The position numbers and the translations under genes are program-made. From Thermoanaerobaculia bacterium (GTDB lineage: Bacteria > Acidobacteriota > Thermoanaerobaculia > Multivoradales > UBA5704), in assembly GCA_044226625.1 (NCBI GenBank), contig JBGAGQ010000010.1:69813-133812 (forward strand): a stretch of DNA of 64,000 bases, given 5' to 3'. Below, piece after piece: positions 2,731 through 32,675 of this stretch. The notes under the pieces are model-generated. The model was not told the DNA's origin. It ran no database searches and worked only from the letters and a program-made list of their open reading frames with translations. Numbering within the stretch: the first letter of the stretch is position 1; each line of letters opens with the position of its first letter.

Positions 2731-4197
2731 ATGCCCGATCACCCCGACGGCCGTGCCGGAGAGGATCGCACGGCGGCGCCGGTTGCGCTGGCCGGTCTGC
2801 TCGGCGCCGCGGCCGGCTCGGCCGGGATCTGGGCGTTCCTCTCGTTCCGGTTCCACGGCGAAAACGGCGCCGCTCCGGTCGCGATCTTTCTGTGGGCCAT
2901 CCTCGCCCTGTTCGTCATCCTAGGGGCCGGTTTCGCCTCCGCCCGCCGCCTCGCGGCGGAGCGACCGCAGCTCGCGCTCGTCCTGATTCTCGGCACCGCG
3001 GCGCTCTTCCGGCTGCTGCTCCTTCCGGCGGGGCTCGCCGCTTCCCGGGGCGCGGCGGCCGACGACCTCGCCGGTCGCGCGGTGGGCTTCGAGCGCTTCC
3101 TGCTCTACGACCAGGACGTCTGGCGCTACCTTTGGGACGGCCATCTGGTCGCCCGGGGAATCGATCCCTACGGTCGGACGCCGGAGGAGTGGGAACGGCT
3201 CACCGAAGCGGGAGACCCGCGGGCCGAGGCGATCCTCGAAGAGCCCCCGTGGCTCGACGCGTTCGACATGATCGCGTTTCGCGGCCATCGATCCGTCTAT
3301 CCTCCGCTCGCGCAGGCGGCGTTCGGCCTGTCCGCGCTCGTGGCGCCTGGCAGCGTCCTCGTCTGGAAGCTCCTGCTGCTGGTCGTCGACCTCGGCACCT
3401 GCGGGCTGCTCGCGGCGCTGCTCGCCCGGTTGGGGCGCGGCCGGTGGGAGGTGATCCTCTACGCTTGGAATCCGCTCGTTTTGAAAGAGGTCGCCGGCTC
3501 CGGGCACGTCGACGCCCTCGCGGCGCTCGGCCTCGCCGGAGCGGCGCTCGCGCTGGTCGCGGCGGACCGTTCATCCCACCCGAAAGAGCGCCGACGGGGC
3601 GAATCGCTCACGCTGGCTGCCTTGGCTTTCGCGGGCCTCGCCAAGCTCACCCCGCTCGTCGCCGCCCCGGCGTTCCTCGCGCGGATCCCGCGGCGGAGGG
3701 GGTGGATTCTCCCGGCGGCTCTGGCGGTGGGTTCCCTGCCTTTTGCGGCCGGCCTTCCGGATCTCCTCCACGGTCTCTCGGCGATGGCCGCCGAATGGCG
3801 ATTCCAAGCCGGTGGGTGGGATCTCTTCGCGGCGCTCGGCGAGTGGATCGTGCCGGGCGCGGGCCGTGGCGTCGCGACGGCGTTTGCGCTGCTCGCGACG
3901 CTCGCCCTTGGCGTCTGGATCCTTCGCGATCGGAGCGCCCTCGGAGCACTGCGGGCCGCGTACGCGATGCTGCTCGCGTTCCTCCTGCTCGGTCCGGCGG
4001 TGATGCCCTGGTACGCGGTGGGCCTCCTGCCGCTCGCGGTCGCCGTCCGCGGCCGGGCGGGGCTCGCCTTCTCGGCGCTGGGGTTCCTCTCCTACCTGGT
4101 CTACGTCGACGGGACGGAAGGGATCGCCGCGCGGGCTTTCGTCCACGCGGCGACCTGGGCGCTGCTCGCGATCGATCTCAGGCGAATCGAGGGTTGA
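2731..4197 (+). CDS. Polytopic membrane glycosyltransferase (GT-C, GT87/DUF2029-like)
   Basis: DVWRYLWDG, GIDPY, SVYPP, YAWNPL, GHVD, PWY motifs with many TM helices. Confidence 0.75.
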   Translation: MPDHPDGRAGEDRTAAPVALAGLLGAAAGSAGIWAFLSFRFHGENGAAPVAIFLWAILALFVILGAGFASARRLAAERPQLALVLILGTAALFRLLLLPAGLAASRGAAADDLAGRAVGFERFLLYDQDVWRYLWDGHLVARGIDPYGRTPEEWERLTEAGDPRAEAILEEPPWLDAFDMIAFRGHRSVYPPLAQAAFGLSALVAPGSVLVWKLLLLVVDLGTCGLLAALLARLGRGRWEVILYAWNPLVLKEVAGSGHVDALAALGLAGAALALVAADRSSHPKERRRGESLTLAALAFAGLAKLTPLVAAPAFLARIPRRRGWILPAALAVGSLPFAAGLPDLLHGLSAMAAEWRFQAGGWDLFAALGEWIVPGAGRGVATAFALLATLALGVWILRDRSALGALRAAYAMLLAFLLLGPAVMPWYAVGLLPLAVAVRGRAGLAFSALGFLSYLVYVDGTEGIAARAFVHAATWALLAIDLRRIEG

Positions 4198-4370
4198 TCT
4201 CAGATCGTCGGCGGCGGTGGGGTGCGGCCTCCGGGTGCCTGCCCGCCGCCGGGTTGATCTCAGATCGTCGGCGGCGGTGGGGTGCGGCCTCCGGGTGCCT
4301 GCCCGCCGCCGGGTTGATCTCAGATCGTCGGCGGCGGTGGAGTGCGGCCGCCGGGTGCCTGCCCGCCGCC
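4191..4370. repeat. Tandem repeat, 3 x 60 bp, internally palindromic (REP/BIME-like)
   Basis: GGGTTGATCTCAGATCGTCGGCGGCGGTGG...CCCGCCGCC at 4191, 4251 and 4311 (third copy has two substitutions). Confidence 0.9.
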
Positions 4371-4607
4371 GTCGATGGGGCCTCCGGCCGCTTCGTTGCC
4401 GCGGCGGGCTTGGAAGGAGGGCCTGGGGGCCTTCGGGGTCTTGCCGATCGGGAAGGATTTCGGACAGGAGGGACGCGCGGGGAAAGCTTGCAGGTTTTCC
4501 ATCGATAAGTCTCCTTGATCGGCGTTCGGGGCGCGGAGCCGGGGGCGTCGCGCCGGGGTGAAAACTTGCGGGATCAGTTGGGGAGATCCGATCGGAGCGC
4601 CGAAGGG

Positions 4608-12024: not shown

Positions 12025-12264
12025 ATGTTCGATCCGCAAAAGGCTTTCGAAACCCATCGCGGCGAGGTCGCTCGCCTCGTCGACAGCTATCGCACGCGAT
12101 GTCTCTGGTTTCTGCGAGAGGATTTCTACCCGACCAACGCCGAGGAGGCCGTCCGCGTCCTCTCGCAAATCGAGCGCAACGCCGACCTCGAAGGGTTCCG
12201 GCGCGCGGCCCGGCTTCGCTCATGGCTCTCACCGACTTCCAGCGCACCGTCTGCCGCCTCTTAG
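12025..12264 (+). CDS. Small protein, putative antitoxin of the adjacent nucleotidyltransferase
   Basis: 79 aa, RCLWFLRED motif, overlaps the downstream gene; TAGAAT 10 nt upstream. Confidence 0.6.
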   Translation: MFDPQKAFETHRGEVARLVDSYRTRCLWFLREDFYPTNAEEAVRVLSQIERNADLEGFRRAARLRSWLSPTSSAPSAAS

Positions 12265-13034
12265 CGGCCCATCGCGTGGCGTCCGGGGAGAGCTACGTCG
12301 CGGGCGGGGTGGCGCTCAACGAATGGCTCGGCGCACCGCGGCTGTCGCGCGACGTGGACCTTTTCCACGATACGGAGAGCGCCGTCGAACGGAGCTGGAA
12401 CGAAGACCGTGCGCTCCTCGTCGAGTCGGGCTTCGCGGTCCTCCCAGTGCGGGAGCGTCCAGGGTTCGTCGAGGCGGAGGTCCAAAGGGGCGGCGCTTCG
12501 TTGCACCTCGAATGGGTACGCGACAGCAGTTTCCGCTTCTTCCCCCTCGTCGAGCATGCTGAGCTCGGCCTCACCCTCCACCCCTTCGACCTCGCGACGA
12601 ACAAGCTGCTCGCCCTGGTCGGGCGTCGCGAAGTCCGCGACTGGATCGACGTCCTCGAATGCCATGCGCGCTTGCAACATCTCGGCTACCTCGCTTGGGC
12701 CGCCTGTGGCAAAGACCCCGGCTTCTCTCCGACGACACTCATCGAACACTCGGCGCGCGGCGGAAGGTTCACGGCGCCGGAGGTGGCAAGCCTCGCCTTC
12801 GTAGGGTCCGCTCCCGATCTCGGCTCCTTCTCCCGAGCGTGGCACGCGGCGATCGAAGAGGCCCGTCAACTGGTCGCCGTCCTGCCCGCGGCGGAAGCGG
12901 GAAACTGCGTCCTCGACGCCGAGGGGAAGCTTCTACGCGTCGGGCCCGTCGGCCTCCCGGCGGCCATCTCTCGTGGAGAGGTTCGATTCCACGCCGGTAG
13001 CATCCGGGGGGCTTTTCCGACGCTGATGGCGTAA
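12222..13034 (+). CDS. AbiEii-like nucleotidyltransferase (type IV TA toxin-like)
   Basis: AGGVAL...RLSRDVDLF catalytic signature; NKLLALVGR...RDWID. Confidence 0.75.
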   Translation: MALTDFQRTVCRLLAAHRVASGESYVAGGVALNEWLGAPRLSRDVDLFHDTESAVERSWNEDRALLVESGFAVLPVRERPGFVEAEVQRGGASLHLEWVRDSSFRFFPLVEHAELGLTLHPFDLATNKLLALVGRREVRDWIDVLECHARLQHLGYLAWAACGKDPGFSPTTLIEHSARGGRFTAPEVASLAFVGSAPDLGSFSRAWHAAIEEARQLVAVLPAAEAGNCVLDAEGKLLRVGPVGLPAAISRGEVRFHAGSIRGAFPTLMA

Positions 13035-13192
13035 GACGACGACGTTGCGAACCTGGATCCCTGGGGCCGCTGACAGCTCGCCGGCGCTTCTGTCGAGCGA
13101 GGACCCAGCGAAACGTCTGCCGCCTCGTAGCGGCCGAAAAGGGCGCACCAAACACGCCTAAAGTGCGCTCAACCTTGAGCCTCTCGAAACAC

Positions 13193-13219
13193 GGCTGGCG
13201 CCTTCCGGCGCCAGCCTTT
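13193..13219. terminator. GC hairpin, probable (bidirectional) terminator
   Basis: GGCTGGCGCC-TTCC-GGCGCCAGCC perfect 10-bp stem followed by TTT on +. Confidence 0.65.
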
Positions 13220-13274
13220 GCTTCTACACCATGGAACACACTGTTTCAATCCGCGCCCCTCCGAGAGAGGCGGC
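13193..13274 (-). ncRNA. Putative crRNA-like RNA (solitary repeat, 26-nt guide, hairpin)
   Basis: 13274-13243 reads GCCGCCTCTCTCGGAGGGGCGCGGATTGAAAC, 23/32 identical to the array repeat with the stem and GGATTGAAAC end kept; guide AGTGTGTTCCATGGTGTAGAAGCAAA follows. Confidence 0.75.
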
Positions 13275-13277
13275 CAG

Positions 13278-13332
13278 TTCAGTGTATACCACGGTCTAGG
13301 GGGTTGACTTTAGCTTTGGAGACGCCGAAAAT
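13278..13332 (+). promoter_or_regulatory. TTC-PAM target of the crRNA-like guide next to a predicted sigma70 promoter
   Basis: TTC (13278-80), then AGTGTATACCACGGTCTAG matching the guide 15/19; TTGACT-N17-GAAAAT at 13304-13332. Confidence 0.6.
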
Positions 13333-13460
13333 AAATCGGCCCCGGAGGAGGACGAGTCCTCTAGGGCCGCGGAGATTCAACCGGGCCGAGGTAGGCACCA
13401 GCTGAAATCGCACAGTAGCAGTGTACCTGCCGAGGTCCTTCCAATTCAAGGAGGAGCGCG

Positions 13461-13634
13461 GTGAAAAGGCCCGACTGGGTCGTCCGGCTGCTGGTGGAGT
13501 TGCTCCGTCCTCAACTTCCCCGAAGCTGGACATTCACCCTTGGGCTCCGACGGGCGGACCGTCGGAGCCCAGGTTCTCGCGTAAACGACCTGATGCGAAA
13601 TCAAATTCAACGGAATCATCCAGCCCTGGGTTGA
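13461..13634 (+). CDS. Unannotated 57-aa mini-ORF ahead of cas3
   Basis: AAGGAGG at 13448-54, GTG AAA AGG start, TGA abutting the cas3 ATG at 13635; internal 13-bp hairpin 13541-13571. Confidence 0.4.
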   Translation: MKRPDWVVRLLVELLRPQLPRSWTFTLGLRRADRRSPGSRVNDLMRNQIQRNHPALG

Positions 13635-15824
13635 ATGCTCGTAATGCGGCCAGGCAAGTTCTACTCCCATACCCTCCTCGGTCGCCCTCAATCGGAGTGG
13701 GAGCGACTCGAAGAGCACCTGGTTCAGGTAGCCGAGAAGGCGTCCGAGTTTGCCTCGGTATTTGGAGCCTCCGAATGGGGCCATCTTGCGGGGCTGTGGC
13801 ACGACCTGGGGAAATACCGGAGATCCTTCCAGGAGTACCTCGATCGGACGGGAGCGGTCGGATTCGAGGCGACCCAAGAGCAAGCTGCGGGCCGAGTCGA
13901 TCACTCGACGGCGGGGGCGCAGGTCGCCGTCGAGCGGCTCGGTCCCTTCGGGAAGGTACTCGCCTACGTGATCGCCGGGCATCACGCGGGCTTGCCGGAC
14001 GGGCTCGGCGGACAGAGCTCCTTAGAAGCGAGACTTGCAAAAGCCGAGGTGATGGCCGACCTCGATCTGGCCGCGATACCGGGGGCGATCCTGAACGCTT
14101 CATGCCCCGGGAGCCGGCCACCTTCCCGAAATGCCGAGGAAGCGCACCTTTGGGTGCGATTCCTGTTCTCCGCGCTCGTCGACGCGGATTCCTTGGCGAC
14201 CGAAGCGTTCGTCGATCCGGAAAAGTCGCGCCTCCGTTCAACTCATCCCGAACCCGGACCGCTCTTAGAGGTTCTCGAACGACATCTTTCGGCGAAGTTC
14301 GGTGAGCCACGGACGGAAGTTCAACGCATCCGTCGCGAGATTCTCAGAGCATGTATCGAAAACGCGCAGCTATCGCCGGGCGTCTTTTCGCTTACGGTTC
14401 CCACGGGGGGAGGAAAGACCCTCTCGTCGCTCGCGTTCGCTCTTCGCCACGCAAGCCTGCACGGCCAGCGGCGAGTGATCTACGCGATTCCCTACACCAG
14501 CATCATCGAACAGACGGCCACGACCTTCCGCGAGATTTTCGGGGAGTGGGTCTTGGAGCACCATAGCAATCTGGATCCGGAGGACTCCTCGCGCGAGACC
14601 CTTCGGGGCACGTTGGCCGCAGAGAACTGGGACGCGCCGATCGTCGTCACCACCAACGTCCAGTTGTTCGAGTCCGTGTTTTCGGCGCGCAGGACCCGTT
14701 GCCGAAAGCTCCACCGCCTGGTCCGATCGGTGATCGTCCTCGACGAGGCCCAGCTCCTTCCTCCGGAGTTCCTCAAACCGATCCTTCACGTCCTTCGCGG
14801 TCTGGTGCGCGACTACGGCGCCTCGGTAGTCATCTCGACCGCGACCCGGCCGGCGCTCGATCTCGGTGAAATTCGGGAGCTGGCATCCGATCCGGCGGAT
14901 CTCGACCGACGACTCCGGCGGGTGCGCTACGAGTGGCCGAAATCGCGCGAACCGAGAACCTGGGACGAGATCGCCGACCGTCTGACGGCTCACTCGAGCG
15001 TCCTCTGCGTCGTCAACCGCCGCGACGACGCCCGGCAGTTGGTGGGCTTGTTGCCGGAGGACACGGTACATCTCTCGGCGCTGATGTGCGGAGCGCATCG
15101 CTCGGAGAAAATCGCCGAAATCAAACGGTGTTTGGCGGAACGCAGGCCTGTTCGGGTCGTCAGCACCCAGCTGGTCGAGGCCGGGGTCGATCTCGATTTT
15201 CCGGTGGTCTATCGCGCATTCGCCGGGCTGGACTCGATCGCGCAGGCCGCCGGACGCTGTAACCGCGAAGGTCGGCTGGATGGCCCTGGCCGAGTGGTTG
15301 TGTTTCACCCTCCCAAGGGCTCGCCACCCGGATTGCTCCGCAAGGCGGAGGACACCGCCGCGGAGTTGATCGGCGACCGCGCGCCGGAGTTCCTGGAGCC
15401 GGACCTGTTCACCCGCTATTTCGACCTCCTGTACCGAACCAAGGTCGACGATCTCGACAAGCACGGAATCTTGGACCTGTTGGGCAAGAACGCCCGTGCG
15501 CTCGACGTCCAGTTTCGCGAGGCGGGCGAGCGATTCCGACTGATCGAGGAATCGGGTTACCGGCCGGTCTTGGTCGCCTGGCGCGACGGCGCCGGTCTCC
15601 TCCGCGAATTTCGACGCCGAGAACCCGATCGGAGTCTGTTTCGGCGCGCACAGCGCTACGTCGTCACGTTGCCGCCGTGGCAGCTCGGAGCGCTCGAAAA
15701 GGCCGGGGCAGTTCGTGAGATCGCTCCCGGCTTCTTCGGTCAAGAACATTCGCTCCTGTACGACGAGAAGCTGGGGCTGCTTACGACCGTGCCCGAGTTT
15801 CGAGCTGAAGACCTGGTCGTATGA
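13635..15824 (+). CDS. cas3: Type I-C Cas3 HD nuclease-helicase
   Basis: HDLGK HD motif, PTGGGKT, DEAQ, TQLVEAGVD, QAAGRCNR; start 13635 or 13644. Confidence 0.97.
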   Translation: MLVMRPGKFYSHTLLGRPQSEWERLEEHLVQVAEKASEFASVFGASEWGHLAGLWHDLGKYRRSFQEYLDRTGAVGFEATQEQAAGRVDHSTAGAQVAVERLGPFGKVLAYVIAGHHAGLPDGLGGQSSLEARLAKAEVMADLDLAAIPGAILNASCPGSRPPSRNAEEAHLWVRFLFSALVDADSLATEAFVDPEKSRLRSTHPEPGPLLEVLERHLSAKFGEPRTEVQRIRREILRACIENAQLSPGVFSLTVPTGGGKTLSSLAFALRHASLHGQRRVIYAIPYTSIIEQTATTFREIFGEWVLEHHSNLDPEDSSRETLRGTLAAENWDAPIVVTTNVQLFESVFSARRTRCRKLHRLVRSVIVLDEAQLLPPEFLKPILHVLRGLVRDYGASVVISTATRPALDLGEIRELASDPADLDRRLRRVRYEWPKSREPRTWDEIADRLTAHSSVLCVVNRRDDARQLVGLLPEDTVHLSALMCGAHRSEKIAEIKRCLAERRPVRVVSTQLVEAGVDLDFPVVYRAFAGLDSIAQAAGRCNREGRLDGPGRVVVFHPPKGSPPGLLRKAEDTAAELIGDRAPEFLEPDLFTRYFDLLYRTKVDDLDKHGILDLLGKNARALDVQFREAGERFRLIEESGYRPVLVAWRDGAGLLREFRRREPDRSLFRRAQRYVVTLPPWQLGALEKAGAVREIAPGFFGQEHSLLYDEKLGLLTTVPEFRAEDLVV

Positions 15825-15857
15825 ACCGAGTGTCCGAACCAAGAAAGGACGGTGCGA

Positions 15858-16523
15858 ATGCCTCTGCATTGTCTCGAAGTCTGGGGTGACTTCGCCTGCT
15901 TTACCCGACCGGAGATGAAGGTGGAGCGCGTTAGCTATGACGTGATGACGCCCTCCGCCGCGCGTGCGATCTTCGAGGCGATCCTCTGGCGGCCCGCGAT
16001 CCGGTGGCGCATCCATCGCATCGACGTGCTGCAGCCGATCCGCTGGCTTTCGTTTCGCCGCAACGAAGTCGGCGCCGTCGTGCCCGTCGGGAGCGTCAAG
16101 AGCGCGATGAAATCAGGGACCGGGTGCCTGGCCCTGAACGTCGAGGACGAACGACAGCAACGGGCTGGTCTCCTGCTGCGCGACGTGCGGTACCGGATCT
16201 CCGCCTCGTTCTCCATGACCGGCAAGGCGGGGCCTGCGGAGACTGAAGGGAAGTTCGCCGAGATGTTTCGGCGCCGGGCTCGGAAGGGGCAGACCTTCAA
16301 CCAGCCCTACCTAGGGTGCCGCGAGTTCGCCTGCGGTTTTCGTTACGTCGAGGATCCGACCCGTGAACGCCCGCCCATTGAGGAGAGCCGACACCTCGGT
16401 TTGATGCTCTACGACCTCGATTTCTCCGACCCCGCCGAACCCAATCCCGCGTTCTTCGACGCCCGTTTGGGGCGCGGGACTCTGGAAGTCCCCGACTGGG
16501 AAAGCGCCGAGGTGCTGAGGTGA
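15858..16523 (+). CDS. cas5c: Type I-C Cas5 (Cas5c/Cas5d)
   Basis: WGDFACFTRPEMKVERVSYDVMTPSAARAIFEAILW, PYLGCREF. Confidence 0.97.
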   Translation: MPLHCLEVWGDFACFTRPEMKVERVSYDVMTPSAARAIFEAILWRPAIRWRIHRIDVLQPIRWLSFRRNEVGAVVPVGSVKSAMKSGTGCLALNVEDERQQRAGLLLRDVRYRISASFSMTGKAGPAETEGKFAEMFRRRARKGQTFNQPYLGCREFACGFRYVEDPTRERPPIEESRHLGLMLYDLDFSDPAEPNPAFFDARLGRGTLEVPDWESAEVLR

Positions 16524-18217
16524 TCCTGCAGGCGCTCTGCGACTATTACAGGCGGAAATCGTCGGACGACGAGGCCGAGGTTGCCCCACCAGGTTTTGAG
16601 CACAAGGAAATCCCCTTCGTTCTCGTGCTCGACCGAGAGGGGCGCCTGGTGCAAATCGACGACCTCCGGTCGCCCGACGGCAAAAGGGCCAAGAGACAAC
16701 TGGTCCCCCAGGCGGTCAAACGCACGGTTGGCGTGTCGGCGAATCTCCTGTGGGACAGCCTCGAATACGCCCTCGGTTACGACTCGCGGGGCCGGGCGGA
16801 GAGGGTGGCCCGGCAGCACGCCGATTTCCGGCAACGAATCGATCGGCTTCCCGGCGATGACGAGGCGCTTGCCGCGGTCAAGATTTTCCTGGCGGGCGAC
16901 CCTCTGGAAGAGACTCGGCGTGCGTCCCTGTGGCCCGAGCTCGCCGAGGGGAACCCCCTGGTGACCTTTCGACTCGCCGACGATCCCGAGCTCGTGTCGC
17001 AGCGGTCCGCCGTTCGAGGGCTGCTCACCGGCGGTGAGCCCCGCGAGGTCGAGGCCCGTTGCTCGATCACCGGTCGGCTCGACGCGATTTCGCGGCTTCA
17101 TCCTTCGATCAAGGGTGTTCGAGACGCCCAACCGACCGGCGCGAGCCTGGTTTCCTACAACGAGCCCGCTTTCCGTTCCTTCAACAAGGACCAGGGCGCG
17201 AACGCTCCCGTGGGTGAGGAGGCCGTGTTCGCTTACACGACCGCCTTGAATCACCTCTTGCGGCCGGGCTCGTCCCAACGAATCCAGCTGGGCGACGCGA
17301 CGACCGTTTTCTGGTCCGAGAAGGCGAGCGGCGGCCTCGTCGAGCGGGCCTTCACGTCCTGGTTCGACCCCCCGCGTGACGATCCGGACGCCAACGTCGA
17401 GAGCGTTCGCGCTCTCTACGAGTTTCAGCGCGGGCGACCCTTGACCGACGATGATCAGCAGCGCTTTTTCGTGCTTGGCTTGGCGCCGAACGCCGCGCGC
17501 CTGGCCGTTCGCTTTTGGCAGGTAGCGACCATTGCCGACTTGGGGCAGCGGATCTTCGAACATTTTTCCGCGCTCGAGATCGTCCTGCCTCCCAAGAGCC
17601 CTCGGTATCCCTCTCTTCCGCAACTACTCGCTTCGATCGCGGTCCAGGGCAAGCTCAAGAACGTTCCTCCTGGGCTTGCGGGCGATTGGCTCCGCTCGAT
17701 CCTGTCCGGCTCGCCGTACCCGCACACTTTGCTCGAAGCGGCGATCCGCCGTTGCCGTGCCGAACAGGCCGTGACCCCCTCCCGCGCCGCGCTGATCAAG
17801 GCATCACTCATTCGATCGTCCCACCAACGAAAGGAGAATCTCGCCGTGTCGCTCGACCTGAGCAATGTGAATCCCGGGTACCGGCTCGGGCGGTTGTTCG
17901 CCGTGTTCGAAAAGCTCCAGGAGGACGCTCAGCCAGGAATCAACGCGACGATCCGCGACCGCTACTTTGCCTCGGCTTCCAGCAATCCGCTGGTTGCGTT
18001 TTCGACCCTCAATCGATTGAAGAACCACCACCTGGCGAAACTCTCGAATCGGGGTCTCGCGGTCGTCCGCGAAAAACTGATCGGCGAGATCATGTCCGGA
18101 ATCGATGCCAAGGATCCCTTTCCCGCGCGGTTGTCGCTCGCGGACCAGGGCCGCTTCGCCGTCGGCTACTACCACCAACGCCAAGCATTTTTCGAGAAGC
18201 AAGGAGGCAACGACTAA
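16520..18217 (+). CDS. cas8c: Type I-C Cas8c/Csd1
   Basis: [41 protein letters not shown]. Confidence 0.97.
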
Positions 18218-19104
18218 TGGCCCTCGAACACCGTTATGACTTCGTTCTACTTTTCGACGTTCAAGACGGCAACCCCAACGGCGACCCGGATGCCGGAAAC
18301 CTTCCGCGGATCGATCCCGAGACCGGCGAGGGTTTGGTGACCGATGTCTGCCTGAAGCGCAAGGTGCGCAACTTCGTCGGCTTGGTCAAGGGCGAGCAGC
18401 CTCCGTTCGAGATCTACGTCAAGGAGAAGGCGGTTCTCAACCAACAGCACGAACGGGCCTACGTGGCGATCGGGAAACAAGACCTCCTCAAGAAGGCCGA
18501 CGAGAAGGACAAGAAGAGAAAGGGCGGCGACGCCGTGGACGAGGCTCGCGCCTGGATGTGCAAGAACTTTTACGACGTACGCACCTTCGGGGCGGTCATG
18601 TCCACCGGTACCAATTGCGGCCAAGTCCGCGGCCCGATCCAGATCACTTTCGGCCGTTCGGTCGCGCCGGTCGTGTCGCTCGAGCACTCGATTACCCGGA
18701 TGGCGGTCACCACCGAGAAGGAAGCCGAAGAACAGGCGGGTGACAACCGGACCATGGGCCGTAAGTTCACCGTTCCTTACGGTCTCTACCGTACTCACGG
18801 TTTCGTCTCGGCGCACCTGGCCGACCAGACGGGATTTTCGCCCGAGGATCTCGACCTTTTCTGGCAAGCGTTGACCCAGATGTTCGAGCACGATCGGTCG
18901 GCCGCTCGCGGTCAGATGGCGACCCGCAGGCTCTATGTGTTCGAGCACGCTTCGAAGCTCGGCAACGCGCCCGCCCACGCCCTGTTCGACCGCGTCTCGG
19001 TCGGATTGAGAGAGTCGGGGCGGCCGGCTCGGAGCTTCGAGGATTTCGAGGTCCGGATCGATCGCGAAGGACTGCCGGAGGGAGTGACGCTGCGCGAGAT
19101 GTAA
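18217..19104 (+). CDS. cas7c: Type I-C Cas7/Csd2
   Basis: [43 protein letters not shown]; AAGGAGG RBS and TAATG overlap. Confidence 0.97.
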
Positions 19105-19109
19105 CCGCC

Positions 19110-19839
19110 ATGTTCTCCGAAGACGACCTCCTCCCGCTCTCCGCCCTGGCAGCACTACGTGTTCTGCCCGCGGCAAAGCGCGTTGATCCACGTCGAAGGG
19201 ATCTGGCGGGACAACGTGCTCACGGTGACCGGGACGCAGCTGCATGAGCGGCTGGACGAGGCCGGAGGCGAGGCGCGGGGCGATCTCCTGGTCGCCCGCG
19301 CGCTGCCGCTTCGGAGTCTGCGGCACGGTCTCGCCGGCCGGGCGGACGCGGTGGAGCTGCATCGGCTGCCCGAGGGGGAGAGCGGAGGCGTGGCGCTTCC
19401 CGGCCGGACCGGCCGGTGGCGGCCGTTTCCGGTCGAAACCAAGCGCGGTAAACCCAAATCGCACGACGCCGACCGGGTCCAGCTCTGCGGTCAGGCGCTC
19501 TGTCTCGAAGAGATGCTCGGCACGGACGTTCCCGCGGGGGCGCTGTTCTACGGCATGCCGCGGCGTCGGGAGGAGGTCGCGTTCGACCCCCGTTTGCGCG
19601 AGGCGACCCTGACCGCGGCGCGCGCCGCACGCGAAATGATCGCTTCGGGAACGACGCCCCGGGCGGTGCGGGAGCCGAAATGCGATCGCTGCTCCCTCCT
19701 CGACCGCTGCCTTCCCAACCTCCTCGGCCGCTCTGCGAGCGGCTTTCTGGAAACCGCTCTCCGAGCGGAAAGTCAAGAAGCCGCGCTTCGAGCCGAGGGC
19801 ATCGCCGCCGCGGTACCGCGGGAAGGGGAGGGTCCATGA
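19110..19839 (+). CDS. cas4: Cas4 (apparent +1 frameshift near 19149)
   Basis: MFSEDDLLPLSAL in one frame, QHYVFCPRQ...PVETKRG...QLCGQALCLEEM...CDRCSLLDRC in the next; one extra G in CTGGCAG. Confidence 0.92.
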
Positions 19840-20940
19840 AACGCCTCGGCAACACGCTCTACGTCACCACGCCGGGCGCCTATCTGAGCAAGGACGGTGA
19901 GGCGGTCGCCGTGCGAGTCGAGGAGGAGGTACGGCTGCGGATCCCGATCCACCTGCTCGACGGCGTCGTCTGCCTGGGCGCGACCGGCGCGAGCCCGTAT
20001 CTCCTCGGCTTCTGCGGCGAGCGGGGGGTGGCGGTGTCGTTCTTGACCGAGCAGGGGCGGTTCCTCGCGCGGGTCGAAGGGCCGGTTTCGGGCAATGTCC
20101 TCCTGCGTCGGGCGCAGTACCGCGCGGCCGACGAGCCGGGGCCGGCGTGCGGCATCGTGCGCGGGATCGTCGCGGCGAAGATCGCCAATTCGCGCGCGGT
20201 GCTCCGCCGGGCGCTGCGCGACCGACCCGAGGCCGCTGGGAGCGAGGCGCTCGAATCGGCGGTTGTACGGATCGGAGCGCTGATTCCCGCTCTTGTCGGA
20301 GCGCCCTCGATCGACGTCCTGCGCGGTCTCGAGGGCCAGGCGGCGCGGATCTACTTCGAAGTCTTCGACGCCCTGATCGTTCAACAGCGCGAGGCCTTCG
20401 CCTTTCGCGGTCGAAGTCGCCGGCCGCCGCTGGATCCAATCAACGCCCTCCTCTCGTTCCTCTACGCCCTGCTCCGCCACGACACCGAGGCCGCGCTCGA
20501 AGGGGTGGGGCTCGATCCGGCGGTCGGCTTCCTCCATCGCGACCGCCCAAGCGGCCTCGGCGATCTGCAATCCGATTCCGCTCGATCCGGCGGTCGGCTT
20601 CCTCCATCGCGACCGCCCCGGCCGCCCTGGGCTCGCGCTCGATCTGATGGAGGAGCTGCGCGCCTTCCTCTGCGACCGGCTCGCTCTTTCCCTGATCAAC
20701 CTGCGTCAGGTTCGGCCGGAGGGGTTCACCGTTCGCGAGACGGGCGGCGTCGAGATGGACGAGGCGACGCGCAAGGAGGTCCTCGTCGCCTACCAGAAGC
20801 GCAAGCAGGAAGAGCTGCTCCACCCGTTCCTGCGCGAAAAGGCGCCGGCCGGCCTGCTGCCGCACCTTCAGGCCGCTCTCCTTTCCCGCCATCTGCGCGG
20901 CGACCTCGACGCCTACCCGCCGTTTTTCTGGAAAGGCTGA
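19836..20940 (+). CDS. cas1: Type I-C Cas1 (interrupted by a 70-bp insertion/duplication)
   Basis: NTLYVTT, SGNVLLRRAQY, RGLEG, RRPPLDPINALLSFLY, then LALDLMEELR...YPPFFWK in another frame; removing 70 bp gives 344 aa. Confidence 0.93.
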
Positions 20941-20952
20941 GAAGGGGGCGCC

Positions 20953-21243
20953 GTGCTCGTCCTGATCAGCTACGACGTCGCGACGACCACCCGCGAGGGG
21001 AGGCGCCGGTTGCGTCGGGTCGCCAAGACCTGTCTCGACTTCGGCCAGCGGGTGCAGAAATCCGTCTTCGAGTGCCTGGTCGACCCGACCCAGTGGGCGA
21101 TCTTTCGCAACCGTCTGCTCGCCGAGATCGAGCCCGGTGAGGACAGCCTGCGGATCTACTTTCTCGGCAAGAACTGGCGCGGTCACGTCGAGCACCACGG
21201 CGCGAAGCCCAGCCTCGACCCGGAAGGGCCGCTCGTCGCCTGA
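20953..21243 (+). CDS. cas2: Cas2
   Basis: LISYDV...RRLRRVAKTC..FGQRVQKSVFEC...DSLRIY. Confidence 0.97.
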   Translation: MLVLISYDVATTTREGRRRLRRVAKTCLDFGQRVQKSVFECLVDPTQWAIFRNRLLAEIEPGEDSLRIYFLGKNWRGHVEHHGAKPSLDPEGPLVA

Positions 21244-21729
21244 AGTGCAGGGCCGCCAACGGCCGGAAAGCTCGTCGGTTGTGCGTTGTTCTCCTGGCGA
21301 TGTGCGAGATCGTGTAGCCAGACCCCATTCGGAGGCGTCTGGAGGAGCTCCGCGACTCCGCTCTGTGCGGAGCTGGGAGAGATTGGCACAGAGCCGAGAG
21401 AGAAAAGGACATTCCGCGGATCGTCTTGTGCGGTACTTGGTCTGGTCTGTGCGAGTTCCTGGGTGAAATCCGCTTTTTCAGACCACCCCGTCCGTAATCC
21501 CTTGGAGAGATCCGCTTTCCGCTCACGGCGCTGCACAAAGTTGCGTCGACTTTGTGCGGGGTCACGGCCGTGAGGAGTTCTCGCGCTCAAGAATGGCGAA
21601 TTTTGAAACGCCACCGCACAGACATCTCTCGGATTCGCACAGAGCTTCCTCTCCGCTCGGCCTTGGGTGATAGGATCTGCACAAAGGCAGACCTCCTTTG
21701 CACAATTCGCGGTCGGAAAAGAGGTTCCG

Positions 21730-21930
21730 ATGGCCACCAATGTCGAGCTGGACGAAGAGTTGGTCGATCGCGCCCTCCGGGCGACGGGCATTCGCACCAA
21801 GCGAGACCTGATTCACGCGGGTCTTCGCACGTTGGTGCGGCTGCATGAGCAGCGCGAGGTCCGCGACCTCCGCGGCCGGCTTCGCTGGGAGGAGAGCGAG
21901 GGCGTTCCGAGCGAAAAAGAGAACGGCTGA
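21730..21930 (+). CDS. vapB: VapB-type antitoxin
   Basis: MATNVELDEELVDRAL...TKRDLIHAGLRTLV; TGATG coupling to a PIN gene. Confidence 0.85.
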   Translation: MATNVELDEELVDRALRATGIRTKRDLIHAGLRTLVRLHEQREVRDLRGRLRWEESEGVPSEKENG

Positions 21931-22334
21931 TGCGGGTCCTGGTCGATTCTTCGGTCTGGATCGCCTACTTCCGCGGTGACATGACGCCACGGACGGACCT
22001 TCTACACGAGTTGATCGGCTACGCCCCGCTGATCACCGCCGACCTGGTGCTCGCCGAGCTGCTTCGTGGTTTCCCCTCCGATGCCGAGCTGGAGCAGGTC
22101 CGCGCCGCGCTCGCGCTCTTTCCCCGCTACGAGATCGGCGGTGACGCTCTCGCCCTTGCGAGCGCTGGCCTTTCCCGGGTCCTCGCCGCCAAGCGAGCCA
22201 AGGTACCGCCGCTCGCCCAACGTCTGATCGCCACCTGGTGCATCCAGAAGAATGTGGCCCTCCTGCACGCCGATCCGAGCTACGAACCGTTCGAGCGCCA
22301 CCTTGGCTTGAAGGTTCCCGACCCGGGGCTTTGA
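21930..22334 (+). CDS. vapC: VapC PIN-domain toxin
   Basis: VLVDSSVWI, ELLRG, LIATWC, LLHAD. Confidence 0.85.
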   Translation: MRVLVDSSVWIAYFRGDMTPRTDLLHELIGYAPLITADLVLAELLRGFPSDAELEQVRAALALFPRYEIGGDALALASAGLSRVLAAKRAKVPPLAQRLIATWCIQKNVALLHADPSYEPFERHLGLKVPDPGL

Positions 22335-22766: not shown

Positions 22767-25700
22767 GTCGCCCTCCGCGCGAGGGCGTGGATTGAAACCG
22801 CGCGAGCGCAGCACCTCGGCGAGGTTCGCGAGCGTCGCCCTCCGCGCGAGGGCGTGGATTGAAACCCAGATGGTGAGATCGCGAGCGACGAGAACAAAGT
22901 CGCCCTCCGCGCGAGGGCGTGGATTGAAACTGGTCGATCCAGTGGGGTACGCGCGACTCCCCGTGGTCGCCCTCCGCGCGAGGGCGTGGATTGAAACGCC
23001 TTTGCCGCCGGGGGCGATGCGGTCGTCGATCGGTCGCCCTCCGCGCGAGGGCGTGGATTGAAACCAGAAAGCCCAGCAGGACGTCAAGAAGGAGGTCGAC
23101 GTCGCCCTCCGCGCGAGGGCGTGGATTGAAACCAGGAGATCCCTTTCTAGGGGAATCATCCCGCCGTCGCCCTCCGCGCGAGGGCGTGGATTGAAACTGT
23201 CCTGGCACCCGCACGCTGCGCGAGGGGTGGCCGTCGCCCTCCGCGCGAGGGCGTGGATTGAAACTCGATCTCGGACCGGATCGCGGCAACTGCCTCCTCG
23301 TCGCCCTCCGCGCGAGGGCGTGGATGCGGGATTGAAACAGTTCCGCGATCGCCTGGACGAAGGCCGGTTGTCGCCTGCGCGAGGGCGTGGATTGAAACTT
23401 GTCATGCCGCCTTGCGGATGAGCAGCCAGCGTCGCCCTCCGCGCGAGGGGCGCGTGGATTGAACGCCTTCCACGCTCGTGCGCCTCGATCACATCCGTCG
23501 CCCTCCGCGCGAGTGGGCGGACTGAAACTTGATTGCCTCATTCGCTGCCGCGCGAGGCGGCCTTGTCGCCTCCGCTGCGGCGCGAGGGCGTGATTGTACC
23601 GGCTCCCATCGAAGTCATCCCCGGAAGCAAGCGTCGCCTCCTCCGCGCGAGGGCGGATTGAAACCGATGGCCCAAATGATCATGCTCGCGCCTGGTGTCG
23701 CCCCCCCGCGCGAGGGCGGATTGAAACCCTCGTCGCCGACCCCGGAACCGACGGATCAGTCGCCCGCGCGAGGGCGTGGATTGAACCACCGCCGAGTTCG
23801 GGTTCACAGCCGCCGCGCGAGGGCGTGGATTGAACTTGTAGGAGATCCCTCAGAAGCGGAGAGGGATGCCGTCGCCTTCCGCGCGAGGGCGGATTGAAAC
23901 TCGAAGACGCCGCCGAGTGCCGAGGGTGTCGGTCGCCCTCCGCGCGAGGGCGGATTGAAACACACGGAGCGTGGCTGCTGGGACGGAGGTCGCCTTCCGC
24001 GAGGGCGTGGATTGAACCGCATGTCGTGACGTTTGCCACCACCACGGTCGCCTCCGCGCGAGGGCGTGATTGAAACCCCCGCCTCACCTCTAATCAAGAA
24101 GAAAACTGCGTCGCCTCTGCGCGAGGGCGCGGATTGAAACACCCCGGAAATGTCCCACCCTTCAACTGCGCTTTGTCGCCCTCTCGCGCGAGGGCGTGAT
24201 TGAAACGCGGGCGTTCACGATTCGGGCGCTGCCAGCCACGGTCGCCCGCGCGAGGGGCGCGGATTGAAACATCGAGCATAGACGCTGATGATCACGGCTG
24301 GCATGAGTCGCCCTCTGCGCGAGGGCGTGATTGAAACCATGACGAGGAAGTGAAGTTTGCCGGTGCGGCGGTCGCCTCCGCGCGAGGGCGTGGATTGAAA
24401 TCTCGCAGAGCGCCGCCCAATGCAGTCCACGCAGGTCGCCCTCCGCGCGAGGGCGGGGATTGAACACCCTACCTGAATAGCCCAACGCCAGCGCGTGTTG
24501 CCCTCCGCGCGAGGGCGTGGATTGAAACCAGAAGCGCCTGCGCCTGCTGGACGGCGGCGGCGATGTCGCCCCTTCGCGCGAGGGCGATTGAAACGATTAT
24601 CGACGACAGCAGTTCTGGGCCGATCTGGCCGCCCCTTCGCGCGAGGGCGATTGAACGGTAACCAGCGGCGCCTCAAGGGCAGGGCGGTCGCCTCCTGCGC
24701 GAGGGCGGATTGAAACTCCTTGGCCTCAGGCGCTGGAGCCGGAATTGTATGTCGTCGCGCGAGGGCGTGGATTGAACACGCGGATCGGAGTCGACGCGAT
24801 GAAGCAACTGGTTGCCCTCCCGCGCGAGGGCGGATTGAAACTGGTGCTGACCGGCGACGTCCGCTGCTCGCTGTCGCCTCCGCGCGAGGGCGTGGATTGA
24901 AACGTCTTGCGGCCATAGGCCACAGGTTTGGTGAAACTCGTCGCCCTCCGCGCGGAGGGCGTGGATTGAAACCCAGTCCTTGCCGATTGGTCTGGCCTAC
25001 GGCGAATGGTCGCCCTCGCGCGCGAGGGCGGATTGAAAACGATGCCGTCGTGGCAATGGCCGAACGGATCGCGGTCGCCCGCGCGAGGGCGGGATTGAAA
25101 CGCCGAGATGCGCCATGACATCCAAAAGGCACAAGTCGCCTGCGCGAGGGCGTGATTGAACCCCGATGGCCGCGATGATTTCGGGGTTGGCGTCGCCTCG
25201 CGCGAGGGCGTGTGATTGGAACCTTGAATCCTGCATCTGGGGACCATTTGACGAGTCGCCCTCCTCGGCGCGAGGGCGTGGATTGAAACCTGGGGCGCGC
25301 GAGTCCATGTGCTCGAGAGCGATCGTCGCCTCGCGCGAGGGCGGATTGAAACCGTTCCTCGGCCTGCCCAGTGAAGCATTTCCGTGGTCGCCCGCGCGAG
25401 GGCGTGATTGAAATCGACCTCGGCGCGCACCGACGGCAACCAACGGTGTCGCCCTCCGCGCGAGGGCGTGATTGAAACCGCGCTGGTGGAGCGTCTAACG
25501 GGAGAAATGTCGCCCTCCGCGCGAGGCGTGGATTGAAACCCTGGACTTCTCCCGGCCGGGCGCAGGACGCGGTGGTCGCCCCTCCGCGCGAGAGGGCGAT
25601 CGAAAACCAGCTCGCTGACGCCTTGTTACACCTTGGTTCTTCCTCGCGCGAGGGCGATCAAACGGTCGACCAGGGCGCTGCTGCTGCGTCGCCTTCGGCG

Positions 25701-28700
25701 AAGAAAGCGTGATTGAAACGGATCATGAGCGACGATGATTTTGTTCGATCTGGTCGCCTCGCGCGAGGGCGTGGATTGAAACACGTGGATCCTAAGCCCG
25801 TGAAAGAAGGCGAGCGTCGCCCCCGCGCGAGGGCGTGGATTGAAACATGGTCAAGGCCAGCGAACCGAGCTGGTAACGCGCCTGCGCGAGGGCGTGGATT
25901 GAAATCATGCCCGTGCGGTCGGATGGTCAACGCAAAGTCGCCCTCCGCGCGAGGCGGGGATTGAAACACGATGGAAGTGATTCCGAGTTTTGTTTGTTTC
26001 CGTCGCCCTCTGCGCGAGGGCGGATTGAAACGAGTCGCGCTGACGCCTCGAACCTGCTTAAAATGACGAGCGTTCGCGCGAGGGCGGCGTGGATTGAAAC
26101 CGTCCCAACCGGAGAGCAGCCAGCGAAGAAGTCGCCTTCCCGCGCGAGGGCGTGGATTGAAACCGTCTCGGCATGGCGAAATACGCGGGTGGCCTCGTCG
26201 TCCTCTCGCGCGAGGGCGGACAAACTTTTCGGGTCCTGCGGCGCTATCCGCGTGGCAAAGTCGCTCTCCGCGCGAGGGCGTGATTGAAACTCGACGGTTG
26301 GGCGTAAGCGTCTCGAGCTCGGCGTCGCTCTCCGCGCAGGCGACGAAAACTAACGTGTAAAGCACGCTCGAGGCCCGCACTTCCGTCGCCCTCCGCGCGA
26401 GGGCGATTGAAACGTCTTCGACGTCGTGACGCTTCCGATTGCCATGTCGCCTCCTCTGCGCGAGAGCGTGGATTTCGTCCTGATTACCGAGGGGACTTTT
26501 GCTGGAGATATCGTCGCCCTCCGCGCGAGGGCGTGGATTGAAACGATCTGGTTTTGCTGTCAGGAATGCACGGCGGAGTGTCGCCCTCCGCGCGAGGGCG
26601 TGGATTGAAACGTATTGCAAGCTACCTGTATGCTCGAAGCTACGGTCGCCCTCCGCGCGAGGGCGTGGATTGAAACTCCGCAATCACCAAAAGAAAATCA
26701 AAAAACACCGTCGCCCTCCGCGCGAGGGCGTGGATTGAAACTCCTGTTCGGGGGCCTAATCGCCCGTCCCTACCCGTCGCCCTCCGCGCGAGGGCGTGGA
26801 TTGAAACCCCGAGACGACCGGCGTTGGCCCGTTGGTCCCTTGTCGCCCTCCGCGCGAGGGCGTGGATTGAAACTGGAACTGCCACGCTTGAAAGACCGCC
26901 CAAATGCCGTCGCCCTCCGCGCGAGGGCGTGGATTGAAACTCCGATCTCTGGCGCGACGCCACGTCGGACCTGCGCGTCGCCCTCCGCGCGAGGGCGTGG
27001 ATTGAAACTGCAGATCGGCAGGGGCCGGCCCTGCGGAGATCGTCGCCCTCCGCGCGAGGGCGTGGATTGAAACCCCTACGCCGCGGATTTGTGCTCGTGC
27101 AACCGGGTCGCCCTCCGCGCGAGGGCGTGGATTGAAACAAATCCGGCGGCTCCCCGAACGGACGGAACGACATGTCGCCCTCCGCGCGAGGGCGTGGATT
27201 GAAACATGCCGAGGGCGGCGCAGACTTCGCCGGACATCGTCGCCCTCCGCGCGAGGGCGTGGATTGAAACGCACTTTAAGCAGTGGGGAGAGTGGGGGCC
27301 CGCCGAGTCGCCCTCCGCGCGAGGGCGTGGATTGAAACGAAGGCGAGCCGGCGGGCAGGTTCAGCCCTGAGGGTCGCCCTCCGCGCGAGGGCGTGGATTG
27401 AAACGCGGATCCTAGACGCTGATGATGGCGGCCGATGAGTCGCCCTTCCGCGCGAGGGCGTGGATTGAAACGCGATCCTCGTCGACCAGGTGGCGGCCGA
27501 TGGAGTCGCCCTCCGCGCGAGGGCGTGGATTGAAACCGTTTCAAGGGCGCGCCGCTCGCCAACGGCGACCCGTCGCCCTCCGCGCGAGGGCGTGGATTGA
27601 AACCTGTTGGGCCGATCGATTACGGCCCGCGGACGATCGTCGCCCTCCGCGCGAGGGCGTGGATTGAAACCTTGCCGTCGGCCTCTGTGCCGGCGCGCTT
27701 GAGGCAGTCGCCCTCCGCGCGAGGGCGTGGATTGAAACTTCTGCACCTCCGAAACGGCGGCGGCGAACGATGTCGCTCCCCCGCGCGAGGGCGTGGATTG
27801 AAACGTCGATCAAGGCGTCGATCGGCCGAATCGGCGGAGCGTCCCCTCCGCGCGAGGGCGTGGATTGAACGGTAACCAGCGGCGCCTCAAGGGCAGGGCG
27901 GTCGCCTCCTGCGCGAGGGCGGATTGAAACTCCTTGGCCTCAGGCGCTGGAGCCGGAATTGTATGTCGTCGCGCGAGGGCGTGGATTGAACACGCGGATC
28001 GGAGTCGACGCGATGAAGCAACTGGTTGCCCTCCCGCGCGAGGGCGGATTGAAACTGGTGCTGACCGGCGACGTCCGCTGCTCGCTGTCGCCTCCGCGCG
28101 AGGGCGTGGATTGAAACGTCTTGCGGCCATAGGCCACAGGTTTGGTGAAACTCGTCGCCCTCCGCGCGGAGGGCGTGGATTGAAACCCAGTCCTTGCCGA
28201 TTGGTCTGGCCTACGGCGAATGGTCGCCCTCGCGCGCGAGGGCGGATTGAAAACGATGCCGTCGTGGCAATGGCCGAACGGATCGCGGTCGCCCGCGCGA
28301 GGGCGGGATTGAAACGCCGAGATGCGCCATGACATCCAAAAGGCACAAGTCGCCTGCGCGAGGGCGTGATTGAACCCCGATGGCCGCGATGATTTCGGGG
28401 TTGGCGTCGCCTCGCGCGAGGGCGTGTGATTGGAACCTTGAATCCTGCATCTGGGGACCATTTGACGAGTCGCCCTCCTCGGCGCGAGGGCGTGGATTGA
28501 AACCTGGGGCGCGCGAGTCCATGTGCTCGAGAGCGATCGTCGCCTCGCGCGAGGGCGGATTGAAACCGTTCCTCGGCCTGCCCAGTGAAGCATTTCCGTG
28601 GTCGCCCGCGCGAGGGCGTGATTGAAATCGACCTCGGCGCGCACCGACGGCAACCAACGGTGTCGCCCTCCGCGCGAGGGCGTGATTGAAACCGCGCTGG

Positions 28701-31700: not shown

Positions 31701-32675
31701 AAATCCGGCGGTCCCAGACGGACGGAACGACATGTCGCCCTCCGCGCGAGGGCGTGGATTGAAACGTATGCCGAGCTACCTGCTCGCTCGGCGCTGCGAG
31801 TCGCCCTCCGCGCGAGGGCGTGGATTGAAACCCCGCGATCCGGACGCGACGTGAACCGCGTGGTCGCCCTCCGCGCGAGGGCGTGAATGTGGATTGAAAC
31901 GCGATCCTGGTGACCCAAAGTCGTCGCCCTCCGCGCGAGGGCGTGGATTGAAACGCATCCTTCGTCGATTCCAGCAATCGCACGATCACGTCGCCCTCCG
32001 CGCGAGGGCGTGGATTGAAACCCTGGTTTCGGGCGCGCCGCTCGCCAACCGCGTGGTCGCCCTCCGCGCGAGGGCGTGGATTGAAACGCTAGCCTTGCCG
32101 ATCGATTACGGGCCGCGGACGCGGTCGCCCTCCGCGCGAGGGCGTGGATTGAAACTCTCGCCCGGCCTCTGTGACCGGCGCTGATCCAGACCGTCGCCCT
32201 CCGCGCGAGGGCGTGGATTGAAACCACCTCCGAAACGGCGTCGCTGAACGCGGTCGCCCTCCGCGCGAGGGCGTGGATTGAAACGTCGATCGAGGCGTCG
32301 ATCGCGGAGCGTCGCCCTCCGCGCGAGGGCGTGGATTGAAACCCGGCCGTGAACGTCACGTTGAAAGGCATCGAAGTCGCCCTCCGCGCGAGGGCGTGGA
32401 TTGAAACTCGCCGATTCTGGTCGCGGCCACGTCGCCGCCGTCGCCCTCCGCGCGAGGGCGTGGATTGAAGGGGCGGATTGAGCGCCCCGCGGAAGGCGAA
32501 AACCGCTCGTCGCCCTCCGCGCGAGGGCGTGGATTGAAACAAGAATCCGTTGGCGAGGGATGCGGATGGAACGACATCGTCGCCCTCCGCGCGAGGGCGT
32601 GGTTGAAACTGACCCCGGCGTGCTCGTGCCGTATCGACCATTCGTCGCCCTCCGCGGGAGGGCGTGGATTGAAAC
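22767..32675 (+). CRISPR. Type I-C CRISPR array, about 150 repeats, GTCGCCCTCCGCGCGAGGGCGTGGATTGAAAC
   Basis: 32-bp repeat with a 7-bp stem, spacers about 33-37 nt; repeat count estimated from length; degenerate trailer repeat near 32710; error-rich and duplicated blocks inside. Confidence 0.99.

Follow-up and report, generated by a model that had tools for sequence, protein, structure and literature searches.

A solitary diverged repeat upstream of cas3 probably encodes a crRNA-like regulator of its own type I-C CRISPR-Cas locus

Solitary repeat units at CRISPR-Cas loci of type I-C have been reported to give rise to RNAs of 48-50 nt, with an 11-nt handle that is cut by Cas5c and a 3' end that falls in the loop of a 3' hairpin (10.1101/2024.12.27.630466). 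In that preprint the target lies beside a -35 box, is flanked by a TTC protospacer adjacent motif (PAM) and is matched over 16 bp, position 6 being a mismatch. Small-RNA sequencing and reporter assays showed repression of about 21-fold in the presence of Cascade, which a compensatory mutation restored. Those units control cargo defence genes (Nezha, Gabija and "CRISIS") situated between cas3 and cas5c, and the I-C reporter tests were made on the Nezha and Gabija promoters; the literature examined contained no tested case of cas autorepression in type I-C. Autorepression of cas genes by CreR RNAs has been described for types I-B, I-E and V-A, with creA-like elements in I-C loci found by hand (10.1101/2023.03.10.532045, Figure S7). 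Here we report on a solitary diverged repeat (psiR) and its accompanying guide, located next to the cas3 gene of a type I-C locus in a Thermoanaerobaculia bacterium (assembly GCA_044226625.1, contig JBGAGQ010000010.1, positions 69,813 to 133,812). This stretch of 64,000 nt, with a G+C content of 68%, is referred to below as the window.

Related elements are known from other settings. Standalone repeats and mini-arrays were catalogued by Shmakov et al. (PMC10120712), with types I-B, I-D, I-E, I-F1 and V-A highlighted; type I-C has 0 occurrences in the main text of that paper, whose supplementary tables may list such cases. Type I-C is also among the systems whose regulators are mimicked by phages (10.1101/2024.10.29.618823), and CreTA and CrePA are described as safeguards (PMC12737573).

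Our combined findings suggest that the minus strand of the window at positions 13274-13193 probably encodes a putative CRISPR RNA (crRNA)-like regulatory RNA, of the CreR or crRNA-like RNA (crlRNA) kind, for the adjacent type I-C system. This reading is based on the statistics of the match between guide and target, on the co-variation of the two in related loci and on the published experiments with the same design. The mechanism itself is already described elsewhere. Judged from its sequence, the window element is the published I-C build of a single repeat plus a hairpin, combined with CreR logic, and differs in its place: upstream of cas3, divergent from it and facing the effector promoter.

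The diverged repeat lies 9.5 kb from the start of the array (22767) and on the opposite strand. It is identical to the array repeat at 23 of 32 positions, retains a stem as well as the GGATTGAAAC end, and is followed by a 26-nt guide and a 10-bp hairpin, all as the initial annotation had it (Table 1). Outside the array, psiR is the sole repeat-like match at up to 10 mismatches; one further match with 11 mismatches, at 4039, has no handle. The last 10 nt of psiR are unchanged from the array repeat and end in the conserved 3'-terminal TTGAAAC, the single change in the predicted 11-nt handle being T to C at its first base. Nucleotides 1-21 fold into an 8-bp stem (-12.1 kcal/mol) that ends right before this handle. 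If the 3' end falls in the hairpin loop, the mature RNA is predicted to be 48-51 nt long (11 + 26 + 10 + 1 to 4). The 3' hairpin is identical at 22 of 23 positions to that of the psiR unit in a genome of the same genus (L044). Rfam returned nothing at psiR and only sub-threshold CRISPR-DR9 matches at the array repeats, and a scan of viral contigs with the handle and guide seed gave 0 matches.

The guide matches a TTC-preceded site, 39 nt away, at 15 of 19 positions, with mismatches at guide positions 6, 8, 12 and 16. This target sits on the strand opposite to psiR, 7-25 nt upstream of it, and the match begins exactly at the first base past the handle on the guide side and exactly past the TTC on the target side. 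Four nucleotides beyond the target end lies TTGACT-17-GAAAAT, the sole promoter-like site in 12900-13800, for which shuffled sequence gave a mean of 0.1. These details, too, had been noted in the initial annotation and are present in the sequence. Across both strands of the 64-kb window, no non-self site matches the guide better than the target. In the whole 6.6-Mb genome (13.2 million positions) two non-self sites match at 14 of the 16 non-flipped positions, and the TTC is found only at the window target. None of 20,000 shuffled guides had a TTC-flanked site of equal quality within 500 nt, and only 14 of the 20,000 reached even 12 of 16. A chance origin of the match between guide and target is excluded by these statistics.

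We scanned 49 type I-C loci, comprising the window and 48 loci from related genomes and public contigs. Outside the window, 20 solitary handle matches were found, of which two were array-edge repeats and were removed. We then searched within 500 nt for a site flanked by TT[CT] and matching the guide at nine or more of the ten positions 1-5 and 7-11. Such a site was present for 12 of the remaining 18 solitary repeats, and two more reached 8/10 with 13/16 overall, whereas mock guides drawn from the same loci had one in 17 of 2,700 cases. The four repeats without a match were those of L024 and L080 and the poor handles in L045 and L051. The L080 psiR was counted as a miss, since without a 1-nt bulge it matches its TTC site at only 7/10. 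In L024, a Nitrospirae metagenome-assembled genome (Cas3 identity 51%), the solitary repeat lies 0.8 kb upstream of cas3; its region (3127-3300) contains no PAM-flanked seed match, only a PAM-less 13-nt inverted repeat beside a TATATAA box. As a separate observation, this repeat directly follows a reading frame that ends in a Cas1-like C-terminal tail.

Guide and target sequences vary among the loci, yet change together within each of them. For example, CCACAT-TGTGT in the guide faces CCACAA-TGTGT in the target in L064, and CGACGT-TGGGT faces CGACGA-TGGGT in L066. In the group formed by L035, L036 and L080-L082, five different opening trinucleotides (TGG, GGG, AGT, TGT and AGG) are each the same in the guide and target of a given locus. 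Across the 15 elements that were profiled by position, matches dip at positions 6, 12 and 18 (2, 5 and 3 of 15) and number 2-6 of 15 at positions 19-24, while positions 13-17, which were not used in selection, match in 9, 8, 9, 7 and 8 of the 15. This profile supports the five-base pairing rhythm expected of Cascade. The target lies on the guide's own strand in 5 of the 15 elements, so that what is conserved is not an RNA stem formed by the arms. A strong 3' hairpin was found in all nine psiR units that were folded, located 23-33 nt past the handle (about 45 nt in L034), whichever gene lies beyond. The initial annotation had asked for exactly such co-variation in related I-C loci, and its proposal of a type I-C crRNA-like regulator aimed at the cas-side promoter is supported by this co-variation, by the chance statistics and by the preprint (10.1101/2024.12.27.630466).

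In other relatives, the promoter targeted by psiR precedes a DUF3800 gene (L040, 7232-7987) or NYN-domain genes (L030, 13899-14558, and L033, 13953-14570, both on the minus strand). These genes are candidates for CRISPR-supervised cargo in an arrangement that resembles the published one; neither DUF3800 nor NYN cargo is named in the main text of the preprint (10.1101/2024.12.27.630466).

On the proposed mechanism, Cas5c would cut the precursor at the base of the psiR stem, leaving an RNA made of the 11-nt handle (CGGAUUGAAAC), the 26-nt guide and the 3' hairpin. Once loaded into Cascade (Cas5c, Cas8c and Cas7c), this RNA would direct recognition of the TTC, and its pairing with the minus strand would span target positions 1-19, the mismatches there including positions 6 and 12. 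Such pairing would be too short for Cas3 to be recruited, and Cascade would stay in place as a roadblock beside the -35 box, lowering transcription of the leader, a mini open reading frame (mini-ORF) and cas3-cas5c-cas8c-cas7c. Since Cascade would repress its own genes, the loop would be one of negative feedback, and a shortage of Cascade, its inhibition or its occupation by array crRNAs should open it. That the loop senses crRNA load or anti-CRISPRs is suggested by analogy only.

Several observations weigh against this interpretation. A consensus scan of the minus strand upstream of psiR found no sigma-70-like promoter from which the RNA could be made. The initial annotation had placed the RNA's own promoter (TACACT) within the target, a suggestion not supported by the promoter scan of 12900-13800, which returned no minus-strand site. 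By eye, only TACACT and TATACA are seen near psiR, neither with a -35 box, and no acceptable -35 partner accompanies the TACACT within the target. Binding could also be weak. Position 8 belongs to the seed in type I-E, and the window guide has extra mismatches at positions 8 and 16; this objection is tempered by the one or two mismatches within guide positions 7-11 that also occur in 8 of the 15 related elements. No near-identical locus was found, the best Cas3 identity being 52% among genome contigs, 46% among metagenome contigs and about 50% among 300 of the order's genomes. The related loci are, moreover, kin of one another, and L080-L082 were fetched by way of the mini-ORF, such that the counts overstate their independence. 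The locus may be partly decaying, given the frameshift in cas1 and the degeneracy of many array repeats. Finally, the seemingly compensatory stem changes in psiR may have been inherited rather than evolved in place. Two stem pairs are altered on both sides relative to the local repeat, but psiR is closer to a repeat type found in a different I-C locus, L029 (27 of 32 positions identical), and a single G-U pair is the only difference between their stems. We had considered the stem changes as proof of selection on psiR and dropped this argument because of the nearness to another natural repeat type.

The mini-ORF that lies behind the target, with its stop codon directly abutting the cas3 start, is conserved. 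Its core, FT[IV]RFL.E.LR..WPRS, was found in the window and recurs in six further genomes from its family, in copies that are 25-57 amino acids long and that in 4 of 7 cases stop directly after the core. In leave-one-out profile searches over 11,803 reading frames, the omitted member was always the top new match (E = 0.005 for the window copy, and 5e-9, 9e-8 and 5e-4). Profile searches of whole genomes, covering 92 from the family and 300 from the order, gave seven strong matches, a count that omits weak matches (E of 8e-4 or worse, in 12 genomes and in G248). All seven copies lie in I-C leaders behind a psiR target and immediately before the first effector gene, and all belong to one family. 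The three copies that did not enter the profile are found behind a psiR, 0.57-0.7 kb downstream of cas3. Codon differences among the copies fall at the third position 71 times, against 44 and 38 at the other two, and for one serine the codon is AGC in some copies but TCG in another.

The leader itself appears structured. By eye, the leaders of L035, L036 and L080-L082 contain hairpins of the form GCCCC..GGGGC, similar to the one at the 5' end of the predicted cas-side transcript. The hairpin followed by TTCTCGCGT that precedes cas3 in the window is also seen by eye just before cas5c in loci of the same genus (L042, L043 and L045). In a separate observation, the cas3-cas5c spacers of these same three loci hold repeated copies of a GGGACCGCCGGCG..CCTCGCCGGCGTTTTT hairpin element. 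Tentatively, psiR, the repressed promoter and the structured leader with its mini-ORF may form an undescribed three-part module, in which the peptide would act either as a small toxin, repressed by CRISPR, that renders Cascade indispensable, or as an arrest or leader peptide through which effector expression gains a translational layer. This conserved mini-ORF module is the part of the locus most likely to be new.

The mini-ORF also raises the question of what repression would be for. The RNA could be the antitoxin half of a safeguard of the CreTA or CrePA type, with the silenced promoter chiefly driving a toxic or growth-arresting mini-ORF and the loss of Cascade punishing the cell. This overlaps with a regulator of the cas operon, since both readings share one RNA mechanism and differ in pay-off alone. 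Several features are in keeping with a safeguard: no cistron stands between the targeted promoter and the mini-ORF, which has a strong AAGGAGG, the peptide is conserved in seven genomes and always behind a psiR target in an I-C locus, its substitutions show the third-position bias and the AGC versus TCG serine noted above, and CreTA and CrePA provide precedents (PMC12737573). However, the mini-ORF matched no Pfam family and gave no usable match in the ESM Atlas, and by eye its codons include a single AGG at codon 3 and no tandem rare arginine codons such as those of CreT. In addition, the L044 copy has by eye no ATG, GTG or TTG start past its ribosome-binding site, and the predicted co-transcription with cas3 would suit a leader function equally well. 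We consider a safeguard unlikely.

A different explanation does away with Cascade altogether. Here psiR would be a decaying relic or a stray repeat left by recombination, and the inverted repeat that guide and target form around it would serve something else, such as an operator for a dimeric protein or an RNA stem. The arms of the inverted repeat would indeed pair at 17 of 19 positions in a minus-strand RNA when G-U pairs are allowed (by eye); the hairpin at 13193-13216 also scores as a terminator on the plus strand and could serve the AbiEii-like gene upstream; and many solitary repeat units are probably spurious (PMC10120712). Yet the edges of the match are exact at both the handle end and the TTC, the PAM and the 5-nt pairing blocks are kept in related loci despite sequence change, 5 of 15 targets are in direct, not inverted, orientation, and the 3' hairpin recurs in nine of nine folded units whatever gene lies beyond. 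We regard a relic as very unlikely. Even less probable, in our view, is that the RNA is made and loaded but acts mainly as a decoy that competes with array crRNAs for Cascade, or shuts off only its own promoter, with little effect on cas expression. The target does lie just upstream of psiR, on the opposite strand, where a psiR promoter would have to be, and in loci of the L031 type it overlaps, by eye, a promoter-like TTCCCA-17-TAGCAT on the psiR strand. In the window, though, the only promoter-like site in the region is on the cas side, 4 nt from the target, and in the experimental I-C cases a target beside a -35 box gave strong repression (10.1101/2024.12.27.630466).

The regulator, if it functions as proposed, would act on a complete effector set with genes that look intact. 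The gap between cas3 and cas5c is 27 nt, with no cargo in between, and cas7c is followed by cas4, cas1 and cas2 (19159-21243) and then by a VapC gene. Compared with a same-genus Cas1, cas1 is split over two frames at about 20549-20554, with the C-terminal 128 amino acids in the second frame, which reflects either a true frameshift or an assembly error. The array, the sole array-bearing CRISPR locus that a handle scan found in the 6.6-Mb genome, has about 150 repeat units, many of them with indels or substitutions, and contains an internal block of about 2 kb that is duplicated at 87% identity (about 24175-26150 and 27373-29400). Relative to genomes of the same genus (L039 and L042-L045), cas4, cas1 and cas2 are 78-91% identical, whereas cas3, cas5c, cas8c and cas7c are only 27-48% identical. 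The effector and adaptation modules thus appear to have separate histories, and the likeness of psiR to the L029 repeat, over the local array repeat, fits this mismatch.

An AbiEii-like nucleotidyltransferase toxin gene (12099-13034; Pfam E = 7e-8) lies directly upstream of the psiR unit, and the hairpin at 13193-13216 could terminate it. The VapC toxin gene (21930-22334), with a possible small upstream partner reading frame (21667-21930), sits between cas2 and the array, in the usual place of an array leader. Elsewhere in the window, a 60-nt tandem unit is present in 3.0 copies at 98% identity in a G+C-rich region (4191-4371).

Table 1 Features of the predicted regulatory unit, its target and the surrounding type I-C locus. 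Positions are those of the window unless a related locus is named.
Feature	Position	Strand	Details
psiR, diverged type I-C repeat GCCGCCTCTCTCGGAGGGGCGCGGATTGAAAC	13243-13274	minus	array repeat for comparison, GTCGCCCTCCGCGCGAGGGCGTGGATTGAAAC
Predicted 5' handle, last 11 nt of psiR, CGGATTGAAAC	13253-13243	minus	
Guide, spacer-like, AGTGTGTTCCATGGTGTAGAAGCAAA	13242-13217	minus	positions 1-19 (13242-13224) are the target-pairing part
3' hairpin, GGCTGGCGCC-GGAA-GGCGCCAGCC	13216-13193	minus	closes the predicted RNA
TTC	13278-13280	plus	directly 5' of the target; type I-C PAM according to 10.1101/2024.12.27.630466
Target, protospacer-sense strand, AGTGTATACCACGGTCTAG	13281-13299	plus	compared with guide positions 1-19
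Promoter-like site	13304-13332	plus	-35 box 13304-13309
5' hairpin of predicted cas-side transcript	13339-13367	plus	from folding
Mini-ORF, 57 aa, GTG start	13461-13634	plus	AAGGAGG at 13448-13454; stop abuts cas3 ATG; core WVVRLLVELLRPQLPRSW
Leader hairpin, then TTCTCGCGT	13542-13582	plus	by eye
Mini-ORF copy, L044	7465-7536		
Mini-ORF copy, L035	510-593		
Mini-ORF copy, L036	1398-1475		
Mini-ORF copies, L080-L082			
cas3	13635-15824	plus	Cas3 HD and helicase domains
cas5c	15852-16523	plus	NCBIfam Cas5c, 196 bits; full-length against TIGR01876
cas8c	16520-18217	plus	NCBIfam, 538 bits
cas7c	about 18229-19104	plus	NCBIfam, 420 bits
CRISPR array, repeat GTCGCCCTCCGCGCGAGGGCGTGGATTGAAAC	22767-32675	plus	its crRNAs and the regulator would compete for Cascade

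Repression of the cas genes by a degenerate crRNA of their own system would explain how a costly and potentially self-damaging immunity is kept low while being able to rise when Cascade is titrated or inhibited. The window locus and its relatives indicate that type I-C systems in one bacterial order of high G+C content may apply the single-repeat-plus-hairpin design to their own effector operon. The related loci also provide natural guide and target variants with which to gauge the tolerance of Cascade for mismatches when it acts as a repressor, and the mini-ORF that follows the target stands out as a concrete candidate for a novel accessory component.

Among known systems, the type I-C crlRNAs (10.1101/2024.12.27.630466) share with the window unit a single psiR with a stem directly before the conserved 11-nt handle, a TTC PAM, a partial match in which position 6 is mismatched, a target beside a -35 box and a 3' hairpin in place of a second repeat, with 48-51 nt predicted here against the 48-50 nt measured there. 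They differ in that the published units lie after the cargo and before cas5c and repress the cargo promoter, whereas the window unit, known here from its sequence alone, lies upstream of cas3 and divergent from it, has no cargo but a mini-ORF, and faces the cas promoter. As with the elements of Shmakov et al. (PMC10120712), a repeat-like sequence is located in a cas intergenic region near cas3, with a spacer that matches the cas promoter region. Like CreA of the CreTA system in the I-B locus of Haloarcula hispanica (PMC12737573), the RNA is predicted to be a Cascade-bound degenerate crRNA that silences a neighbouring promoter by partial pairing; unlike CreA, whose partner is the CreT toxin RNA, it has the conserved mini-ORF as its sole candidate partner. 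In contrast to the phage-borne RNA anti-CRISPRs (Racr/Cracr), the unit lies inside a chromosomal cas locus, between the AbiEii-like gene and cas3. With CreR (10.1101/2023.03.10.532045) it shares a degenerate repeat with a handle, a guide partly complementary to a PAM-flanked site at the effector promoter, and the logic of autorepression; CreR genes, however, are mini-arrays with two psiR, whereas the window unit combines a single psiR with a hairpin.

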